Part shown: one piece after another, positions 2,940-25,725 of the stretch | Layout: the number at the start of each line of letters is the position of its first letter | How positions within the stretch are numbered: the stretch's first letter is position 1 | Virus record (IMG/VR): IMGVR_UViG_2802429248_000006 | Span: 1-26,851 of that record | Reading direction: 5' to 3' (one strand) | Length of the DNA: 26,851 nt | From: a virus | Lineage: Duplodnaviria > Heunggongvirae > Uroviricota > Caudoviricetes | Notes under the pieces: model-generated | Database searches by the model: none | Told to the model about the DNA's origin: nothing | Seen by the model: only the letters and a program-made list of their open reading frames with translations | Position numbers and translations under genes: made by a program

Positions 2940-3541
2940 GGATTCACTCTCATTGTGTCAATAATATGGACCGCCCCGCCTTCATGCGCGGTGCCGCCGG
3001 AAATAATTGTTTCGTTGATATACGGATAGATCGTGATTTCTTCGCCAAGATAGCTGGCGGCTCCCACCCAATGCGGGCCGCTGGTCTGCAGGTTGATGGA
3101 CATGCCGATCATGTGACGACTACATGGTTTGGCATCGCTTATCAGTCGCTCAAGTTCCAGATGGGTATCTTCAGTGATGCCCTGGTCCTGCACGCCGATA
3201 TCCAGGCGAAACGTGCCCGGTGTCTCTCCGGTCTGCCACCACTCAATAATGCGGATCAGAAAGCCGAACGGCTCCACCACCCGCCGCACGGCACTGGTGG
3301 TCCCTTTATGCTGATGAATATAAAAAGCATCCTTCACCACCTGGCGCTTGACGCTTTCTGTCCAGCCCTCGTCCCAGCGATCCACAGAGAACGCCCAGGC
3401 GAGATAAGGCAGGAAACTGACCGGACAGGTTGCCGGATTCCACAAGTCACGCAGTGACACCTGCAGATCAGAAATCCCGCTGCAGGTTTGCGCCAGTCGG
3501 CGCTCCAGTGGCGTTGAACCCGGTGGCAGCAGACTATTCAT
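2936..3541 (-). CDS. I: Baseplate assembly protein I
   Basis: 201-aa ORF in the P2 position between J and H; stop overlaps the H start. Confidence 0.85.
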   Translation of the reverse strand: MNSLLPPGSTPLERRLAQTCSGISDLQVSLRDLWNPATCPVSFLPYLAWAFSVDRWDEGWTESVKRQVVKDAFYIHQHKGTTSAVRRVVEPFGFLIRIIEWWQTGETPGTFRLDIGVQDQGITEDTHLELERLISDAKPCSRHMIGMSINLQTSGPHWVGAASYLGEEITIYPYINETIISGGTAHEGGAVHIIDTMRVNP

Positions 3542-14214: not shown

Positions 14215-15318
14215 TTAATCTTGCTCAGGCTCATAACGTGGTTCAATACTGCCAAAATTAACATATTTAATAACCGACGTTAACTCTATATCCTCAGCGT
14301 CCATATTATCATAATTCCTATCGAAATCATTAAATATGGTAAAGATCACACTGGTAGTATCATCAACTTCTGTAAACTCCGTTGTAGCAGCCAAGTAAAC
14401 ATTATCTTTATCTATAGAATCGTAATGATAAAAATTAAATTCACACTCAGCATTATATGTTACTGTGACTTTAATCTCAAAAGTCGCATAATCTTGACTA
14501 ACATCTATAACATTAATAGAAGGTTCAAACTCAACGTCTGATACATAACAATAGTTAGCCTCCGGCTCAAAACTAAGGTAGGAATCAGCCTCTGCCATAA
14601 AACTCACATCATCATAACGGCTAATAACTACACTTCTAATAGAGTCCAATAGGGTAATAGATTTTCCAGCCTCTATATCGAGCATTAAACGCTGAGCAAA
14701 CTCATATGGAGCTGTTCTAGGTTGAAAGTGCGTTAATGCTTCGCCTAAATCCTGAATGCAGGTTACATAATCTGAACCACTACAGTATTCAATCCATCCC
14801 TGGTCTCTTGAAATTGCTATTATTTTTTTATGAGATTTTTTAGCATAAGCCTCAATTGCAAATAGAACTGTTGCATCTGGAAACTCCTCCTTCCTTTTCT
14901 TTCTATCAGCGAAGGGCGGAGTTAAATTAAAATAAGCATCAAATACTTCATCAAGTGTTGTATAGTCACTACACTTAATTTCAACCGCACCACATTTTTT
15001 CAAATATTCTTCTATCCTTGAAGAGGCCAACGCATCAGAACTGACCATTTGTATAGAGTTTTCAAAAATAGATTCAGTCTCTTTGCTGGTTAGCAAAGAA
15101 TGTATCAGTGCATCTTTAAGAGATTTATCCAGTGCATCTTGTGATTCTTTAATTTTTTTTGATAGATGACTTTGCACTTCATTTTTCACGATGTCAGGCA
15201 TAAGAAAATCCACTTGGCTATGACAAAACTGCTTCATCCGTGCAAGCATACCTTCGTTAAAACGCCAGTGATAATTATCAATAGTTTGTGTATCTAAAAC
15301 TATAGCATCGTATGACAC
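14215..15318 (-). CDS. Hypothetical cargo protein, 367 aa; N-terminal PIN-like nuclease-type fold suspected, C-terminal acidic beta-rich domain of unknown function
   Basis: Long intact ORF with GTG start and an AAGGAG Shine-Dalgarno; visibly AT-rich against the GC-rich flanks; N-terminus AIVLDTQTI plus later acidic residues (E47, PDATVL, SRDQGW) resemble a PIN-like pattern. Confidence 0.6.
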   Translation of the reverse strand: MSYDAIVLDTQTIDNYHWRFNEGMLARMKQFCHSQVDFLMPDIVKNEVQSHLSKKIKESQDALDKSLKDALIHSLLTSKETESIFENSIQMVSSDALASSRIEEYLKKCGAVEIKCSDYTTLDEVFDAYFNLTPPFADRKKRKEEFPDATVLFAIEAYAKKSHKKIIAISRDQGWIEYCSGSDYVTCIQDLGEALTHFQPRTAPYEFAQRLMLDIEAGKSITLLDSIRSVVISRYDDVSFMAEADSYLSFEPEANYCYVSDVEFEPSINVIDVSQDYATFEIKVTVTYNAECEFNFYHYDSIDKDNVYLAATTEFTEVDDTTSVIFTIFNDFDRNYDNMDAEDIELTSVIKYVNFGSIEPRYEPEQD

Positions 15319-15435
15319 AAGCTCGCTCCTTCTTCTTTAATGCACAACAGAGTGTTCTACAAAATCATCTAAGATGAAAGTTGTAAACCTAACCGTCTAT
15401 GTCTGCAAGTTTTCTTTTTTTCCTCTCAGCGCGCG

Positions 15436-15454
15436 CTCGTATCCCCGCCACGCC
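15436..15454 (-). other. Putative cos (cohesive-end) site
   Basis: Minus strand reads GGCGTGGCGGGGATACGAG; the first 13 nt match my recollection of the 186/P2 cos 19-mer; lies between the A side and the Q side as expected. Confidence 0.4.
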
Positions 15455-15495
15455 TGCCCGCTTTATGTAGTGGTTTTCATGCACCTGCATGATCT

Positions 15496-15523
15496 ACGCA
15501 AAAGCCCGCCAGTTCTGGCGGGC
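15496..15523 (-). terminator. Rho-independent terminator for the minus-strand SOS/early transcript
   Basis: GC-rich stem GCCCGCCAG/CTGGCGGGC followed on the minus strand by a short T-tract (TTTTGCG). Confidence 0.5.
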
Positions 15524-15658
15524 CTTAGCAAAAACGATCCTCAAACGATCATGCGATCTCATGCGGCATAGACATGCACTACAGAGCTAACGCCTCGCAA
15601 GGGCTGGTTGTTCAACCTTGCTGACGCCAGAAGCAAGTTCAGACGCCAGCAACGTTTC

Positions 15659-15891
15659 TTAATGCAGCCAGCTGTCGTCTTCCCACACCTTCTGCATAAT
15701 TTTCATCACTTGTTTTCTTTCTTCGTCCAGTTGCAGTCCGGTTAGTTCCACACCGTTAGAGCTACCTTTGCGAATGCGAATTACCGTTTTGGATACAGGG
15801 GGCGCAGATTGCGGTAAAGCTCGGATTCAAGGGCGTCCAGGGTAGACTGGCTAATCTTCTGCTCTTTATCGATCATTATTTCAATGCGCAT
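15659..15891 (-). pseudogene. dinI: DinI-like gene interrupted by a 1-nt frameshift in an A4 run
   Basis: N-terminal 29 aa MRIEIMIDKEQKISQSTLDALESELYRNL resemble DinI; reading stops after RPLYPKR, but the -1 frame continues ...VIRIRKGSSNGVELTGLQLDEERKQVMKIMQKVWEDDSWLH, matching the DinI C-terminus; shift point is the A-run at ~15787-15790. Confidence 0.65.
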
Positions 15892-15901
15892 AAAAGTCAC
15901 C

Positions 15902-16090
15902 TCAGCTGATGACATCCATTGAGCGGTTGTATTCGTGGGTTCTGATTTTTGCCATGAGTTCATCTGTTAGTTCAGAAACCCACTGCAGAGCCAGCCCCTT
16001 CTCTTCATCACTACACTCACTAGCCGCTACAAGCTTAAGAAAAAAATCAATGCGCTGGAGCTTCAAAGACTCCAAAAAATAGTCCTGCAT
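15902..16090 (-). CDS. Small SOS-regulated protein (62 aa), possible Tum-like antirepressor N-terminal module
   Basis: ORF 15902..16192 trimmed to the internal ATG preceded by AGGAGGAAAG; sits directly downstream of the LexA box and upstream of the DinI-like gene. Confidence 0.45.
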   Translation of the reverse strand: MQDYFLESLKLQRIDFFLKLVAASECSDEEKGLALQWVSELTDELMAKIRTHEYNRSMDVIS

Positions 16091-16132
16091 CTTTCCTCCT
16101 ATGACACCACAAGAAATACTGTATGTATAACC

Positions 16133-16151
16133 ACTGTTTATATTTACAGTA
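16133..16151 (-). promoter_or_regulatory. LexA box (SOS operator)
   Basis: aCTGTttatatttACAGta fits CTGT-N8-ACAG with an AT-rich spacer; located just upstream of the small ORF and overlapping an AT-rich promoter-like region. Confidence 0.7.
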
Positions 16152-16243
16152 TATAATAATCTTACTGATGTAAAACGTTTTTTTACGTTCATCAGCCTGA
16201 TATGCCTGGTATTATTAAGAGCACGAATTGTTAATCCGCGTAA

Positions 16244-18685
16244 TTAATACAGGTTCCGCCACTTATCATCTTCCCGCAAACGCTGGTTCCGATAGAAGAT
16301 ACGCAAGCCTGCTCCTGACGGAATACTGCCGCCGCGAAGGAGTAAATCGACCTCTTTCTCGCTACCATCAAATCCTCTGGACTTCAGCTCATAGACGAGC
16401 TGCTGTCGCTGATGATCTGTAATTCGCTGTTTGTAGTCTTTACGCCGTTTCGGTTTCACCAGGCGTAACCTTGCTGCCAGTTCCCGGCGCTCTTTTTTGC
16501 TCATACTGTGCAGATAATCGTGCAACTCCTTGTCATCCATGCGGGTAATATCCGTTCTGGTGTCCCCATCAGCTGATTTATCTTTCTCCTGTTGGTTCAA
16601 ATTTTCAGCAAGGGGACAGTTATTGCCACGAGTCCAAGGGGCGCAAGCGCCCTGGTCGGCTGCCGCCTCCTGAACGTCAACGGCCTTACGAACCATTTTC
16701 CACTTCACGGCATGAGTGCAGATCTTGCCCTCTGCAATGGGTGACCAGATGCCATAAATACGAATGCCGTGATCGCCATAGGCGGTCGGCTCTTCGTTAA
16801 TTTCATAAGCGGTTCTGATGAGGTGATATTTGCGGGGAACCAGTACGCCGCCCTGCTTCATGATGTAGGTGGCAAAACAACCAGCATCAGCAGCAGCCAG
16901 GATGGCATCAAGGCGCGGGTTATCCAGTACCGGCGCACCTGCTTTTTTGTCGCCCTGTTGCCTTGCCGCCTGACCAGCCAGCAATCGCAGTTCACGGTAA
17001 GCCTGACGCCCCGGAATGCCAAAGAAGCGGAATTGCTGAACACGATGCAGAGACGCCCAGGCATTAACGTATTCAGCGTTATCACGCAGGGATTTACCCG
17101 TTTCCTTGCTGATCTCGCCAGCCAGACCACGCCCGTCAATGTTCTTACTGATGTATTTCGCGATGTAGCTTGTTGGCGTACCTTTGCGCGGGTTTATCAG
17201 CTCAGACTTAAAGCGTGGTCCCGTGTTATTACCCAGCTCCTCGCGGTCTTCACGAATGGCAAACTTACGCAACAAAGCAGTAATGGCGCGGCGATCTTTT
17301 TTGCGCATAAAACACAACAGGTGCCAGTGAACTGTACCGTCATGATGCGGCTCAGCCACCCGCACGCCATACCAGCGCAATCCGGCTTTGTGCATCGCCT
17401 TACGAAATGCAGCAAACATGCCGACCAGATAATCACTGCTTTGTCTTACCGTCGCATTTGTCCAGGTCGGGTTGGGCCTGCCGTTATTTAGCGTGGAATG
17501 GAAACGTGACGGACAGGTGATGGTGTAGAAAACGGCGCAGTCACTGCGCATTTCCGCGATAAGCTCCAGACCTTTAACACAGGCCATCATCTCATTGCGG
17601 CGATGCGCCGGGTTGCTGCTGCTGGCGTTTACCACATCTTCCATATCCAGCGTGTCGCCGTTTTCGTTCACCAGTTCATGAGAACGGAAAAACTCCAGCG
17701 ACTTACGGCGCTGCTCACGTTTATGCATCACGGCTTCATAGCTGACATAGGGAGATGCTTTTTTGCTGACCAGGCAGACAGCACGCAACTGCTCTTCCCG
17801 CCATTCGCAGCGCATCTTCCATAATTTCCGATACCACCAGTCGGCACACAACATACGCGCCAGCGAACCCGGAATGAGTTCATAGGGCACGGGTTTGCGA
17901 CGCTTTCTTTTCCGACGAAGTTGCTCAAACGCAGGCGGGATAACATCCAGTCGCAGGGTTTCCGCTGCCACCTTTTCCCATGTCTTGCGGATTTCTTCTG
18001 GCTTAACATCATCGGTGGCGTACAAATCACCACAAGCGGCATCAAGGCACATGCTCATATGCGCAGCTACCAGGGTGGACAGGCGTTTCACCTGATCCTG
18101 ACTCATTTCAGGCAGGATCAGCAGGCCGTCCAGCCCTTCATGGCTCGCCATAAAGCGAAAAGAAGTGGATAGCTGACTGTCGCGTACATGCTCCAGCCGT
18201 TCCAGACATGGCTTAATCGTCTCACGCAAATAGCGGGAATAAGCCTTTGGCCTGCCCAGGCTGCTGAAGTATTCAATACGTTGCATCAGCGGCTTGCTGA
18301 TATGGGAAGGCTGGGCGTTAACGTCCGCCAGAATGACCATGTCCGGATTAAAACGCTGCTGCTCATGCGCCAGCTTTGCCCGGCTAATGAGCTTATCCTG
18401 CTCCATTTCGCGTTGGACAGGATCACGGGATTCATTAAAGAAATAACGCTCCCAGACCTGATCACTCAGTGCCTCGCGGCGCACTTGTTCCTGCTCGTTA
18501 TCGGCAGCGTACAGAGTGATCAGGTTTGAAAGCGCAGAAACCGGCGCAACTTCCGCCGGGTCCAGATAAGGGTTAATGGCTTTCTTAGGTAAATTCCACG
18601 AATAACCCCCGGCAGAATTCTCAATGCTACCGGAAGTTACACTGACAAATGGATCGGCAAGACGGCCTGTGCTGATCTCTGTCAC
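16244..18685 (-). CDS. A: Replication initiation protein A (rolling-circle HUH endonuclease)
   Basis: 813-aa ORF with P2 A-type motifs ([25 protein letters not shown]); GTG start overlaps the upstream stop (GTGA). Confidence 0.9.
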
Positions 18686-19692
18686 TCACAGACTCCTGCA
18701 TATACACTGCTGCACACCGCTTTATCATTCATGCCTGCCAGCAGGTCAAACTGCATACCGCCCCGAGTCGTTAAGGCCCAGTCCCGATAAGTTTCAATGC
18801 CATAAGCATCAACAGTTATGACTTCGATCCGTTTTTCATCACGGCGCGGATCATGCGTGGATGGAAAGAACGTTGAATTGCCACGTCTTGAACATTCCGC
18901 AACCAGTCTTTCCCACTCAGCCACTCGGCGGATTTCTTCTGGCCAGCGTTGGAAAATCTCAGCAAGTTCTGACTTGCGAGCATGAATACATGGCATACAA
19001 CCGACACGACTGCATCCCTGCATATAAAGGGGGTTAGGCTTAATGCCATGACGTTTGGCAATAGCAAACACATCCTCATGCAGCCAATTAAGGATCGGAC
19101 GATAAACATGCAGGCCCAGAGTATTGTCTGCATCGTCCTCCCACTCAGGCAACAATGCACGTTCCGGTGATTCCTGCCCCCGGACTCCTTGCCAGCTGAT
19201 TACCTCATCGTATTCATCCAGAGCCGGATCGATTACCTGTGTACGTATTGGTTCATGTTTCAGTTCAAAAGTGCAGAAACGAGCTTTTGTTGAAGGGAAG
19301 CGACCTTTCCACATGCACAAATCAAGAAACGGAACGCCGGTTGGTTTAAGGATTTCCAGTGCCCGGTAAATACGTTCCTCAGCCTCATCTGTCGACATAC
19401 CACATTCCTCAACGAGAGAAATGGGCCACTTTTCCGCAATGAATTTACGTTTCCCTTCTATCTGGCGTGTGAAATCCGCTTTGACGCGAATAATCTTGCC
19501 CAGCTTTGATTCCAGATAATCCAGATATTCTATTGTCTGTGGATGTTCATGACCCGTATCGGCAAATACAGAAATATGCGGAACATCGTTTTCAATGGCT
19601 CTTAACCATTGAGCGAGACTATCTTTGCCACCAGAAGTAGTGATGATGTTAATGGTGCTTGAGGCAAAGCAACGCGGATCGATAGCATTCAT
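18682..19692 (-). CDS. PAPS-reductase / DndC-like PP-loop ATP pyrophosphatase family protein
   Basis: 336-aa ORF with PP-loop motif (TSGGKDS) and a C-terminal cysteine cluster (CSRVGCMPC); ATG overlaps the Dam stop (ATGA). Confidence 0.75.
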
Positions 19693-22973: not shown

Positions 22974-23912
22974 ATGTCAACTCAAAAAATCACATTTCGC
23001 CATATTGAAGATAGTCTGAAAGCTATGGTCATGCAGAATCGTGGAGGGCAAAAAGTCATTGAGAGGATACTCAAGGCCTATGGTTTCAAATCACGCCAAG
23101 CCTTCTGTAAGCATCTTGGTATTTCACAAAGCACAATGGCTAATAGATATGCACGCGATACCTTCCCTGCTGATTGGGTTGTTATATGTTCAATGGAAAC
23201 TGGCGCATCCCTAGAATGGCTGGCCTTTGGTTCTAACAATGCAGAAGAAAGTTTCCCCCCTTATGTGGAACAACATGATGAAACAGTCCCACATGAGGGG
23301 TTTAACAGCAACGCTCATCAATCATCCTTTAAGCGCCGCATTGAGAATCACATTGAGCTTACTAACGGAGGAAAAGCCGCGATAGAGAGGATTGTTAATG
23401 CTTACGGGTTTAAAACCCGCCAAGCCTTAGCCGACCACCTTGGTATTTCAAAAAGCACATTAGCCACACGATACATGCGAGATTCTTTCCCTGCGGATTG
23501 GGTGATTAAATGCGCATTAGAAACCAAAGCGGATCTCGCCTGGCTAGTTACAGGAATCGAAACACCAAATAGTTCACAAGAAGAAAACACTGTAATTTTA
23601 AATAAGTTCAATTTAGTCAATGGCGTGCTTGTCGAGTCAGGTTTTTTATCCATGGATCGGTGTCTACTTCCGAAGCAAGAAACTAGCAGCTTGATGTTTG
23701 TAAGCAATGGAGAAAAACATGTCATATGTGATAAAGAATTTCACCTAATTAGAGATGGAAAATGGTTAGTAGGAATTGACAATGAGTTATCTTTAAAAGA
23801 GTTAACTCGTTTACCTAAGAACAAAATTCTTGTTTCTGGTGGGAGTAAGGATTTTGAGTGTTCCATTGAGGATATTCAAATTATAGCCAGCATTATCTTA
23901 ACAATACAATAA
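22974..23912 (+). CDS. cI: CI-like immunity repressor with two tandem N-terminal HTH domains
   Basis: 312-aa ORF; residues ~27-95 and ~130-200 are clear paralogous copies (ERILKAYGFKSRQAF...FPADWVVICSMETGASLEWL vs ERIVNAYGFKTRQAL...FPADWVIKCALETKADLAWL), resembling the 186 CI N-terminal domain as I recall it. Confidence 0.7.
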   Translation: MSTQKITFRHIEDSLKAMVMQNRGGQKVIERILKAYGFKSRQAFCKHLGISQSTMANRYARDTFPADWVVICSMETGASLEWLAFGSNNAEESFPPYVEQHDETVPHEGFNSNAHQSSFKRRIENHIELTNGGKAAIERIVNAYGFKTRQALADHLGISKSTLATRYMRDSFPADWVIKCALETKADLAWLVTGIETPNSSQEENTVILNKFNLVNGVLVESGFLSMDRCLLPKQETSSLMFVSNGEKHVICDKEFHLIRDGKWLVGIDNELSLKELTRLPKNKILVSGGSKDFECSIEDIQIIASIILTIQ

Positions 23913-23955: not shown

Positions 23956-25725
23956 ATGAATCATCATCTTTCAAAGATTTCTATAAAAAACTTTAGATCT
24001 TGCAAAGATATTGATATCAATTTTTCTTCATTCACGCCTTTAATCGGTTACAACAATGCTGGTAAGTCAACGATTTTAAATGCTATTGAATGGCTTTTTA
24101 AGAAAAAACTTTTGTCCTCTGATGATTATACTAATCCAGATAACCCTATAGAAGTTATAGGTACAGTTAAGGGTATTACTGAAGATATTTTGTCAGCTTT
24201 AACAGAAGAAAACAGAACTAGAATTTCACCCTACATTATTGATGGGGTATTGATATTTAAGCGTCAACAGCCTGTTGGTGCTCAAAGTGCAAAAGACGTC
24301 AGATTATTAATTAAAAACCCAGAAAATAACGAATTCAGGACATCACCAACGGGTATTGAGAATGCGATAAAAGCTTTATTTCCAGACCCAATACGTATAG
24401 GTGCAATGGAAAATGCAGCGGATGATTCTTCAAAATCAAAAACAGGAACTACAATAGGTAAGTTGCTGGCAGAATTGAGTTGCAAAATAGAAGAGAAGCA
24501 CACTCAAAGGATACTAAGCCATTTAAATGCCGTTAATAGAAGAATGACTGCAACCGGTAATAAACGAATATCGGACCTCAATGATATTGATGATTCAATA
24601 AGTAGTAAAGTTGCTGATTTCTTCCCTGGGATAAGTTTAAAACTACACTTCGAACTCCCTGACTTCAAGGATATATTTAAATCAGGGACTGTAAAAGTAT
24701 ATGAAGATTCATTTCCCGGCATTGCTCGTGACTGTTCTTCTTATGGTCATGGCACACAGCGTTCGATTCAGATGGCTCTAATAAGACATTTAGCTGATAT
24801 AACCAACGGTGATGATATTAAAACAACTACTCTACTGTTAATAGATGAACCTGAGTTATATCTTCACCCATTTGCTATCGAACAAATTAGAGAATCTCTA
24901 AAAACACTATCTCATCATGGATATCAAATAATTTTCTCTACCCATTCATCTCAAATGATTACCTCTGACTTAGCAAAAGACACTGTGTTAATCAGAAAAA
25001 ACAGTCAGCGTGGCACTCATTGCAGATTAACATTAAAAGAAGCAGTCAATAAAGTAATCGAACAACGACCAGCACAAGCAACCCATTTATTTTCATTAAC
25101 ACAGTCTTCAAAAGTTTTGTTTGCTAACAATGTAATACTAACAGAAGGTAAAACAGAGACTACTCTGCTCCCATTTATTTTTAACAAAGTTAAAAATAAA
25201 ACATTAGGTCAGATGCAAATAGCACTAATTGAAACAGGGTCCGTTGAAAGTATATCTAAAACGATGCAAATTCTAAATTCAATGGATATACCTACAAAAG
25301 CAATTGTTGATTTAGATTTTGCGTTCCGCGGTGCAATAAGGAACAACTTCTTAGAACATAATGACGAGGATATTTTACGACTAAAAGAAATCTTGAGAAG
25401 TATGCATGCTAATGGAGAATGCACTCTCGATGGATCCGGTTTGCCTACAAAGGGTAGTAACACTACCGCAGCTGAAGCATTTGCTATTATGTCTCAAAAG
25501 CCCGGCGCCAGAGAATTTTTGTCATCATTAGCCGCAAAACTGAGAAATGCAAATATTTGGATTTGGCTAAATGGTTCGATAGAAAACCATTTGGGTCTTA
25601 CAGAAAAAAATGAATCAGTATGGGCTGATTTCAAAACAAAAGCAGATACACAACCTCTTTCAGATATCTGTGCAGATTTCGAAAGTATTGAGGCTTTAGT
25701 CGACTGGATTACCCCTGACGTATGA
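23956..25725 (+). CDS. old: OLD-family ABC-ATPase / TOPRIM nuclease (P2 Old-like, class 1)
   Basis: 589-aa ORF with Walker A (GYNNAGKST), Walker B (LLLIDEPELYLHP), TOPRIM-type glutamate (VILTEGKTE) and DxD (VDLDFA); GGAGGAG Shine-Dalgarno; AT-rich. Confidence 0.85.
   Translation: MNHHLSKISIKNFRSCKDIDINFSSFTPLIGYNNAGKSTILNAIEWLFKKKLLSSDDYTNPDNPIEVIGTVKGITEDILSALTEENRTRISPYIIDGVLIFKRQQPVGAQSAKDVRLLIKNPENNEFRTSPTGIENAIKALFPDPIRIGAMENAADDSSKSKTGTTIGKLLAELSCKIEEKHTQRILSHLNAVNRRMTATGNKRISDLNDIDDSISSKVADFFPGISLKLHFELPDFKDIFKSGTVKVYEDSFPGIARDCSSYGHGTQRSIQMALIRHLADITNGDDIKTTTLLLIDEPELYLHPFAIEQIRESLKTLSHHGYQIIFSTHSSQMITSDLAKDTVLIRKNSQRGTHCRLTLKEAVNKVIEQRPAQATHLFSLTQSSKVLFANNVILTEGKTETTLLPFIFNKVKNKTLGQMQIALIETGSVESISKTMQILNSMDIPTKAIVDLDFAFRGAIRNNFLEHNDEDILRLKEILRSMHANGECTLDGSGLPTKGSNTTAAEAFAIMSQKPGAREFLSSLAAKLRNANIWIWLNGSIENHLGLTEKNESVWADFKTKADTQPLSDICADFESIEALVDWITPDV

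Follow-up and report, generated by a model that had tools for sequence, protein, structure and literature searches.

The tumB (dinI-like) gene of a P2-like prophage is interrupted by a one-nucleotide deletion that is probably genuine, leaving an ordinary pseudogene private to the prophage of one strain. The window (the whole stretch of DNA that was analyzed, 26,851 nt) is a prophage of the 186/Fels-2 type from an E. coli isolate. Its DinI homologue, encoded in a LexA-controlled tumA-tumB operon, would have been inactivated when the CCC codon specifying Pro34 lost one C.

Translation locates the interruption. On the minus strand, tumB begins at an ATG (15891-15889) preceded by the Shine-Dalgarno sequence GAGG (15903-15900), starts as MRIEIMIDKEQKISQSTLDALESELYRNLRPLYPKR, and runs into a TAA stop (15783-15781) after 36 codons (…LYPKR), 35 of them native and the last specifying Arg. 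This 5′ part of the gene (15781-15891, minus strand) appears in the source assembly as a called gene of 36 aa. A second minus-strand frame supplies the remainder, (K)TVIRIRKGSSNGVELTGLQLDEERKQVMKIMQKVWEDDSWLH (KTVIRI…WLH), from the AAA codon of Lys35 (15790-15788) to a TAA stop at 15661-15659; the complete reading of this out-of-frame 3′ part (15659-15790, minus strand) is KTVIRIRKGSSNGVELTGLQLDEERKQVMKIMQKVWEDDSWLH. Stop codons abound in the third frame across the region. Joined, the two frames specify a 77-aa protein. The contention of an earlier note on this DNA, that a single-base frameshift splits a dinI-like gene and that one restored base would yield an intact protein of 77 aa, is confirmed by these translations, and the A4 run at which it placed the lesion does lie at 15790-15787.

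Database calls of this gene vary at both ends. Many entries list the DinI-family protein as 101 aa (e.g., proteins P0017-P0019 and P0023; 15781-15963 on the minus strand of the window). The 24 residues thus added at the N-terminus, MNSWQKSEPTNTTAQWMSSAEVTF, are read in a different frame from the tumA-like ORF that they overlap, and this start, upstream of the good Shine-Dalgarno/ATG combination at 15891, is probably mis-called. At the other end, tumB calls in many assemblies finish at or near Pro34/Lys35, either because contigs break at a mosaic boundary between P2-like prophages that are co-resident or because the truncations are real; a 34-aa protein ending in …RPLYP (P0003) is found on 48 contigs, in a cluster that holds other "partial" members.

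The joined protein matches the DinI family profile over its whole length. It scores 81.3 bits (E 6.6e-23) against Pfam PF06183 (DinI) over profile positions 1-63 of 63, with the curated cut-off at 24.2 bits. The C-terminal piece by itself, covering profile positions 23-63, clears that cut-off with 51.5 bits, and the N-terminal piece by itself, covering positions 1-22, falls below it with 19.2 bits. As a working member of the family the window's gene falls short: an uninterrupted ORF for the whole domain is not found in it, the frame being closed after codon 36. The joined sequence also matches E. coli DinI in the form of PDB 1GHH (E 2.7e-6, residues 1-75) and is assigned to PHROG 189, "RecA filament binding protein DinI". 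AlphaFold2 (pLDDT 81) places its secondary structure elements at E2-8, H15-29, E37-43, E48-51 and H56-73, so that the β-α-β-β-α fold with its C-terminal (acidic) helix is predicted, for the reconstructed protein only; β2, β3 and the C-terminal helix are all encoded by the out-of-frame 3′ part. The alignments proposed by the earlier note bear out its DinI-like designation: both halves match DinI, with 30% identity for the joined protein over the full length of the E. coli protein.

E. coli DinI (PDB 1GHH, 7YWA), an SOS-induced protein that binds RecA filaments, shares with the joined protein the PF06183 domain, the predicted fold and a conserved C-terminal W-E-x-(x)-D/S-W motif. The differences are that E. 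coli DinI has 81 aa, whereas the joined protein is a phage-borne paralogue of 77 aa for which RecA binding is putative, and that the truncated product actually encoded in the window lacks the C-terminal helix. Much closer relatives are found among P2-like phages: the Fels-2 DinI-family protein STM2726.1 and its counterparts in Salmonella phage RE2010 and Klebsiella P2-like phages are 100% identical to the joined 77 aa; the "DinI-like protein in retron Ec67" (DINIR_ECOLX) is also among the closest known relatives; PSP3 TumB is 78% identical. The suggested homology to the C-terminal part of 186 Tum likewise holds, at 41% identity to Tum residues ~71-146.

Which base is missing can be read from the closest intact orthologue, that of strain 01G17CRGN001 (L001), the best match among 5,426 complete E. 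coli genomes. The 362-column pairwise alignment of this allele with the window contains one gap and no mismatches over 361 nt. Where L001 reads TAT CCC AAA ACG (C3A4; TATCCCAAAACGG), the window reads TATCC-AAAACG (C2A4; TATCCAAAACG), and the gap maps to window position 15792; the A-run has four bases in both. The lesion site is accordingly delimited to 15787-15792 (minus strand), CCAAAA in place of the CCCAAAA of an otherwise identical intact allele. Since L001 is identical elsewhere and has the same A4, the run that has been shortened is the C-run, and the lost base is most likely, from this alignment, one C of the Pro34 codon CCC (C-run 15792-15791) and not an A. Identity of the flanks to an intact allele also implies that the lesion is recent. 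The earlier note had placed the lesion in the A-run. That an added A would restore the right protein is correct (CCA AAA ACG specifies P K T), but the A-run has not been shortened, the nearest intact allele having A4 itself. Intact C2A5 alleles (CCA AAA ACG) do exist: an A occupies the variable position in 12 of 130 pattern matches, 3 of the 12 being chance matches in unrelated DNA. Deletion of an A from such an allele was considered as the history of the window's gene and rejected: the nearest C2A5 allele among the pattern matches has 8 other differences from the window, whereas many C3A4 alleles have 0-2, and the closest is identical.

The frameshifted allele is exceedingly rare. The 91-nt stretch that spans it has no exact match in any of the 1,006 complete E. 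coli genomes that bear an orthologue, whereas 260 records contain the corresponding 92-mer of the intact allele without mismatch. Four scans of GTDB representatives, IMG/VR and JGI metagenomes, which included a pattern (CCCCTRTATCCNAAACGGTAAT) capable of catching both C2A4 and C3A3 configurations, yielded no match to the frameshift allele; IMG/VR contains at least 120 intact copies, and every DinI-like orthologue among them has an open 77-codon frame. Exact look-up of the 36-aa product among ~15 billion proteins retrieves 4 contigs only. The window's own source contig, PTSI01000015.1 (GCA_002965825.1, a draft assembly of an E. coli isolate), is recorded there in two samples/blocks. The other carriers are a Logan assembly (SRR7140642; L132) and GCA_965263845.1 (L133). 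L132 has the configuration C3A3, through deletion of an A, in 430-nt flanks that are the same as those of intact C3A4 alleles and differ from the window at 56 positions. L133 has C2A4 within a CTA-TAT background; the intact alleles closest to it are C2A5, and its lesion is probably an A deletion from a C2A5 allele. L132 and L133 represent events separate from the window's, in different prophages. The cargo gene beside tumB in the window specifies a PIN_12 protein that is likewise found on 2 contigs only, the one shown being the isolate's own, with the 36-aa gene; confinement of this cargo to the same two contigs indicates that the lesion is private to the prophage of this isolate.

A singleton in the prophage of one isolate, on a draft whole-genome-shotgun contig, is also just what an error would look like, and the principal competing explanation is that the isolate really has an intact CCCAAAA, a base having been dropped from the draft consensus in sequencing or assembly. 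The lesion lies within a 7-nt tract made up of two adjacent homopolymers, and the frameshifts of L132 and L133 at this tract are also known from one assembly each. Against this, the gap in tumB is the sole internal indel in ~14.6 kb aligned at 95-97% identity to the prophage of strain 01G17CRGN001 (L152), the three further gaps all falling at ragged block ends, and homopolymer noise is therefore not a feature of this assembly; with three C only, the run is a short one for systematic error; the contig with the 36-aa gene is on record twice; and inherited frameshifts are common in tumB, which makes true pseudogenes plausible. We infer that the deletion is biological and not an error of the consensus, and consider the latter unlikely. 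Among the three options that the earlier note left open, a real pseudogene is thus the best supported.

That frameshifts in tumB are common, and are not peculiar to the CCCAAAA tract, emerges from a survey of the whole gene. The products of 1-nt indels were predicted for every homopolymer run of at least 3 bases, and ten of them were looked up in the 15-billion-protein collection. Exact products of deletion were found for C3 at nt 50 (1 contig), C3 at nt 59 (1 contig), A3 at nt 124 (4 contigs), A4 at nt 177 (21 contigs) and C5 at nt 90 (210 contigs), and of insertion for C5 at nt 90 (1 contig). The notion of the CCCAAAA tract as a mutational hot spot can accordingly be discarded: indel products of six other runs exist, and those of C5 are far commoner. 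Shortening of C5 to C4 (CGC CCC CTG) generates products ending in …RNLRPCIPKR* or …RPCIQKR* (proteins P0038, P0040, P0048 and P0050; loci L153-L158, with the tumB orthologue at 3001-3111 in each). P0040, which is named as Salmonella, occurs in 1,812 index blocks and is invariably accompanied by retron reverse-transcriptase cargo, and P0048 occurs in 848 index blocks, with cargo that is always GmrSD; the C4 allele is present in the window's own background in two complete E. coli genomes. These C5→C4 alleles have the appearance of tumB pseudogenes that became fixed in their lineages, across at least 4 allele backgrounds. Frameshifting of tumB is, then, a general, low-frequency phenomenon. Some of these frameshifts are stably inherited, and therefore true tumB pseudogenes exist and persist.

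The recurrence of such lesions invites the alternative that loss of tumB is selected: inactivation of the gene would benefit the lysogen, and its homopolymer tracts would serve as contingency switches for turning it on and off. In Fels-2/186-type prophages, tumB would then repeatedly undergo adaptive inactivation, or be switched on and off by way of its C5, C3A4 and A4 tracts, a proposition to which we attach very little credence. Were it true, the window's allele would be one case of convergent loss rather than of neutral decay, and lysogens would gain from silencing the gene, for example through altered RecA-filament/SOS dynamics or altered spontaneous induction. Three independent 1-nt deletions in the CCCAAAA/CCAAAAA tract, in three allele backgrounds, have converged on one common 36-aa product, and the C5→C4 change has become fixed in very large lineages, in at least 4 backgrounds. 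The details argue otherwise. Runs of 3-5 nt are well under the length of typical contingency loci; indel products arise at 7 tumB runs, with low counts except at C5, as neutral decay predicts; the large counts follow single prophage types with one cargo, which speaks for clonal expansion rather than repeated switching; gene A is also broken in some of these prophages (L154, L155); and, among complete E. coli genomes, the window's allele background counts 0-2 frameshifted alleles against 260 intact ones. Selected loss or switching is, on this evidence, highly improbable.

Most improbable of all is a programmed or usefully leaky −1 frameshift, the third of the options raised in the earlier note, in which tRNA-Lys would slip from AAA to A-AAA while CGG waits, delivering full-length TumB at a set ratio. 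The zero frame at the lesion (CCA AAA CGG TAA, 36 residues and then a stop) does present a CGG codon, which is rare in E. coli, followed by a stop codon, and a −1 slip of tRNA-Lys would keep three A:U pairs and go on to read ACG GTA …, yielding exactly the wild-type protein; but the configuration is not conserved, being absent in all collections alongside hundreds to thousands of intact in-frame alleles, its flanks are the same as those of the in-frame allele, so that nothing has co-evolved with a shift, U CCA AAA C is not an X XXY YYZ heptamer and allows re-pairing of the Lys tRNA only, and an A4 run is far below the length needed for transcriptional slippage. A stimulatory RNA structure was not detected in the 100 nt from the slip site, whose minimum free energy of −15.2 kcal/mol compares with a mean of −17.6 kcal/mol for shuffled sequences (z = +0.89; 165 of 200 shuffles fold at least as well). 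As a programmed −1 site the tract was accordingly rejected, lacking conservation, heptamer and RNA structure alike. Trace restoration of the frame by a −1 slip of P-site tRNA-Lys on A-AAA before CGG is conceivable, as is a restart at the GTG at 15751. With the strain-private pseudogene retained as the preferred reading, tumB is a well-known accessory gene of prophages that has undergone an ordinary inactivation and carries no special recoding signal.

The surroundings of the pseudogene are those of an SOS operon. Gene A (16244-18685), a 62-aa ORF (15902-16090) and tumB (15659-15891) follow one another, all on the minus strand. The 62-aa tumA-like ORF is intact; its TGA (15904-15902) lies 10 nt ahead of the tumB ATG. 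It is 98% identical to Fels-2 STM2728, has PHROG families 698, 8554 and 1993 in common with both PSP3 TumA and the N-terminal half of 186 Tum, and occupies the corresponding position in 186, PSP3 and Fels-2. It is presumed on these grounds to be an antirepressor, remotely homologous to that half of 186 Tum which carries the antirepressor. The sole match in the entire 26.8-kb window to a LexA box, CTGT-N8-ACAG, is found 43 nt ahead of the start codon of the tumA-like ORF, at 16134-16149, and the same box is present, identical, in Fels-2. The 20-mer containing it (TACTGTAAATATAAACAGTG; 16151-16132, minus strand) conforms to consensus at 17 of 20 positions, and the box overlaps a possible −10 hexamer, TATACT; a LexA operator thus appears, by its sequence, to be situated at the operon promoter, and is presumed to be the SOS operator of tumA-tumB. 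A scan of 15350-16300 for σ70 promoters turned up none of consensus type; a TTTACA-15 nt-TATACT pair picked out by eye overlaps the LexA box, at suboptimal spacing. Downstream, 136 nt past the tumB stop, a perfect, GC-rich 9-bp hairpin (GCCCGCCAG/CTGGCGGGC; 15500-15523, minus strand) followed by TTTT is likely to be the terminator of the operon; its T-run of only 4 T caused it to be missed by the scan. A CI repressor of the 186 type (22974-23912) is encoded by a gene with both Phage_CI_repr (PF07022) and Phage_CI_C (PF16452) domains, adjoined by homologues of CII (CP76) and Fil.

Fels-2 provides the nearest precedent: like the window it has replication gene A, the 62-aa ORF, the dinI-like gene, a variable cargo slot and the portal gene, and the sequence ahead of its operon, LexA box included, is almost the same as the window's. 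The difference is that the window's gene is interrupted by the 1-nt deletion and encodes only 36 residues. In 186, a LexA site is annotated at the p95 promoter of the LexA-repressed SOS operon, in which Tum is the antirepressor of CI; a 77-aa, in-frame, GTG-initiated product of the region corresponding to tumB is annotated as SOS induction modulator. In PSP3, tumA and tumB are separate genes and the upstream one is the antirepressor. The window departs from 186 and PSP3 in that its tumA-like ORF is only ~21% identical to the Tum N-terminal half and to TumA, its LexA box lies ~20 nt further upstream in the alignment, and its tumB is frameshifted. According to Lemire et al. 2011 (PMC3121763), Tum combines an antirepressor with a DinI-like half by fusion; in Fels-2 and PSP3 the two halves are split, and in PSP3 the antirepressor activity resides in the upstream gene, the downstream gene being a DinI homologue (PMC3121763). 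Binding of the RecA nucleoprotein filament by E. coli DinI figures in the same article as a claim in its reference list (PMC3121763).

The functional consequences of the lesion would be confined to one branch of the response. DNA damage would still lead to LexA cleavage and de-repression of the operon, and the TumA-like antirepressor would still inactivate CI; the DinI-type modulator would be made only as a 36-residue β1-α1 stub, lacking β2, β3 and the C-terminal helix, that does nothing. DinI contacts RecA via its C-terminal acidic helix, and this helix is said to be the subject of Voloshin et al. 2001. Since the stub lacks that RecA-contacting helix as well as β2 and β3, the 36-aa product is, judged by the predicted fold, very probably non-functional. 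Because the tumA-like gene and its LexA box are both undamaged, and because tumA is the half that acts as antirepressor in PSP3, the prophage should still be inducible by the SOS response, losing only the DinI-type modulation of RecA filaments. We infer that the phenotype is mild.

For annotation, the gene is best entered as a tumB/dinI-like pseudogene, frameshifted within a CCC codon and not within the A-run, in a prophage of the Fels-2/186 type, and not as a recoding site; its significance beyond annotation is slight. The SOS switch appears to be intact, and the prophage is to be treated as potentially inducible. Non-polar deletions of the dinI homologues of the Gifsy-1 and Gifsy-3 prophages leave induction unchanged (PMC3121763), and the frequent occurrence of tumB frameshifts in natural prophages fits this published dispensability of phage dinI homologues for induction. 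The pattern of tumB frameshifts could support a small comparative study of accessory-gene decay in prophages.

Some 75% of the window can be aligned, at ~95-96% identity, with phage and prophage records already deposited, among them that of Klebsiella phage 4LV2017. The genes of the window include integrase, an OLD-like ATPase, the 186-type CI, CII (CP76), Fil, a Dam methylase and a PAPS-reductase-like protein, together with replication gene A and genes for portal, terminase, capsid and lysis. The source contig begins to cover the window at ~5780, and the genes called there are intact except for tumB.

The slot between tumB and the portal gene carries variable cargo. In the window it is occupied by the PIN_12-domain protein (PF16289, E 2.4e-30; 367 aa; 14215-15318, minus strand); in relatives it holds a dsDNA nuclease with a hypothetical protein (L152), AIPR (L132), HIRAN (L133), a retron reverse transcriptase (L153) or GmrSD (L155). 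The slot is probably a hot spot for defence genes. An OLD-like AAA/TOPRIM protein of 589 aa (23956-25725, plus strand) is encoded between integrase and cI. The cI gene itself (22974-23912, plus strand) is called at 312 aa, versus 210 aa in L132 and L133, a difference that could stem from an extended N-terminus or from another type of immunity. A gene of the PAPS-reductase family (336 aa; 18682-19692, minus strand) lies between those for Dam methylase and gene A and is absent in L133 and L152; the product of gene A has 813 aa in the window, versus 804 aa in these same two relatives.
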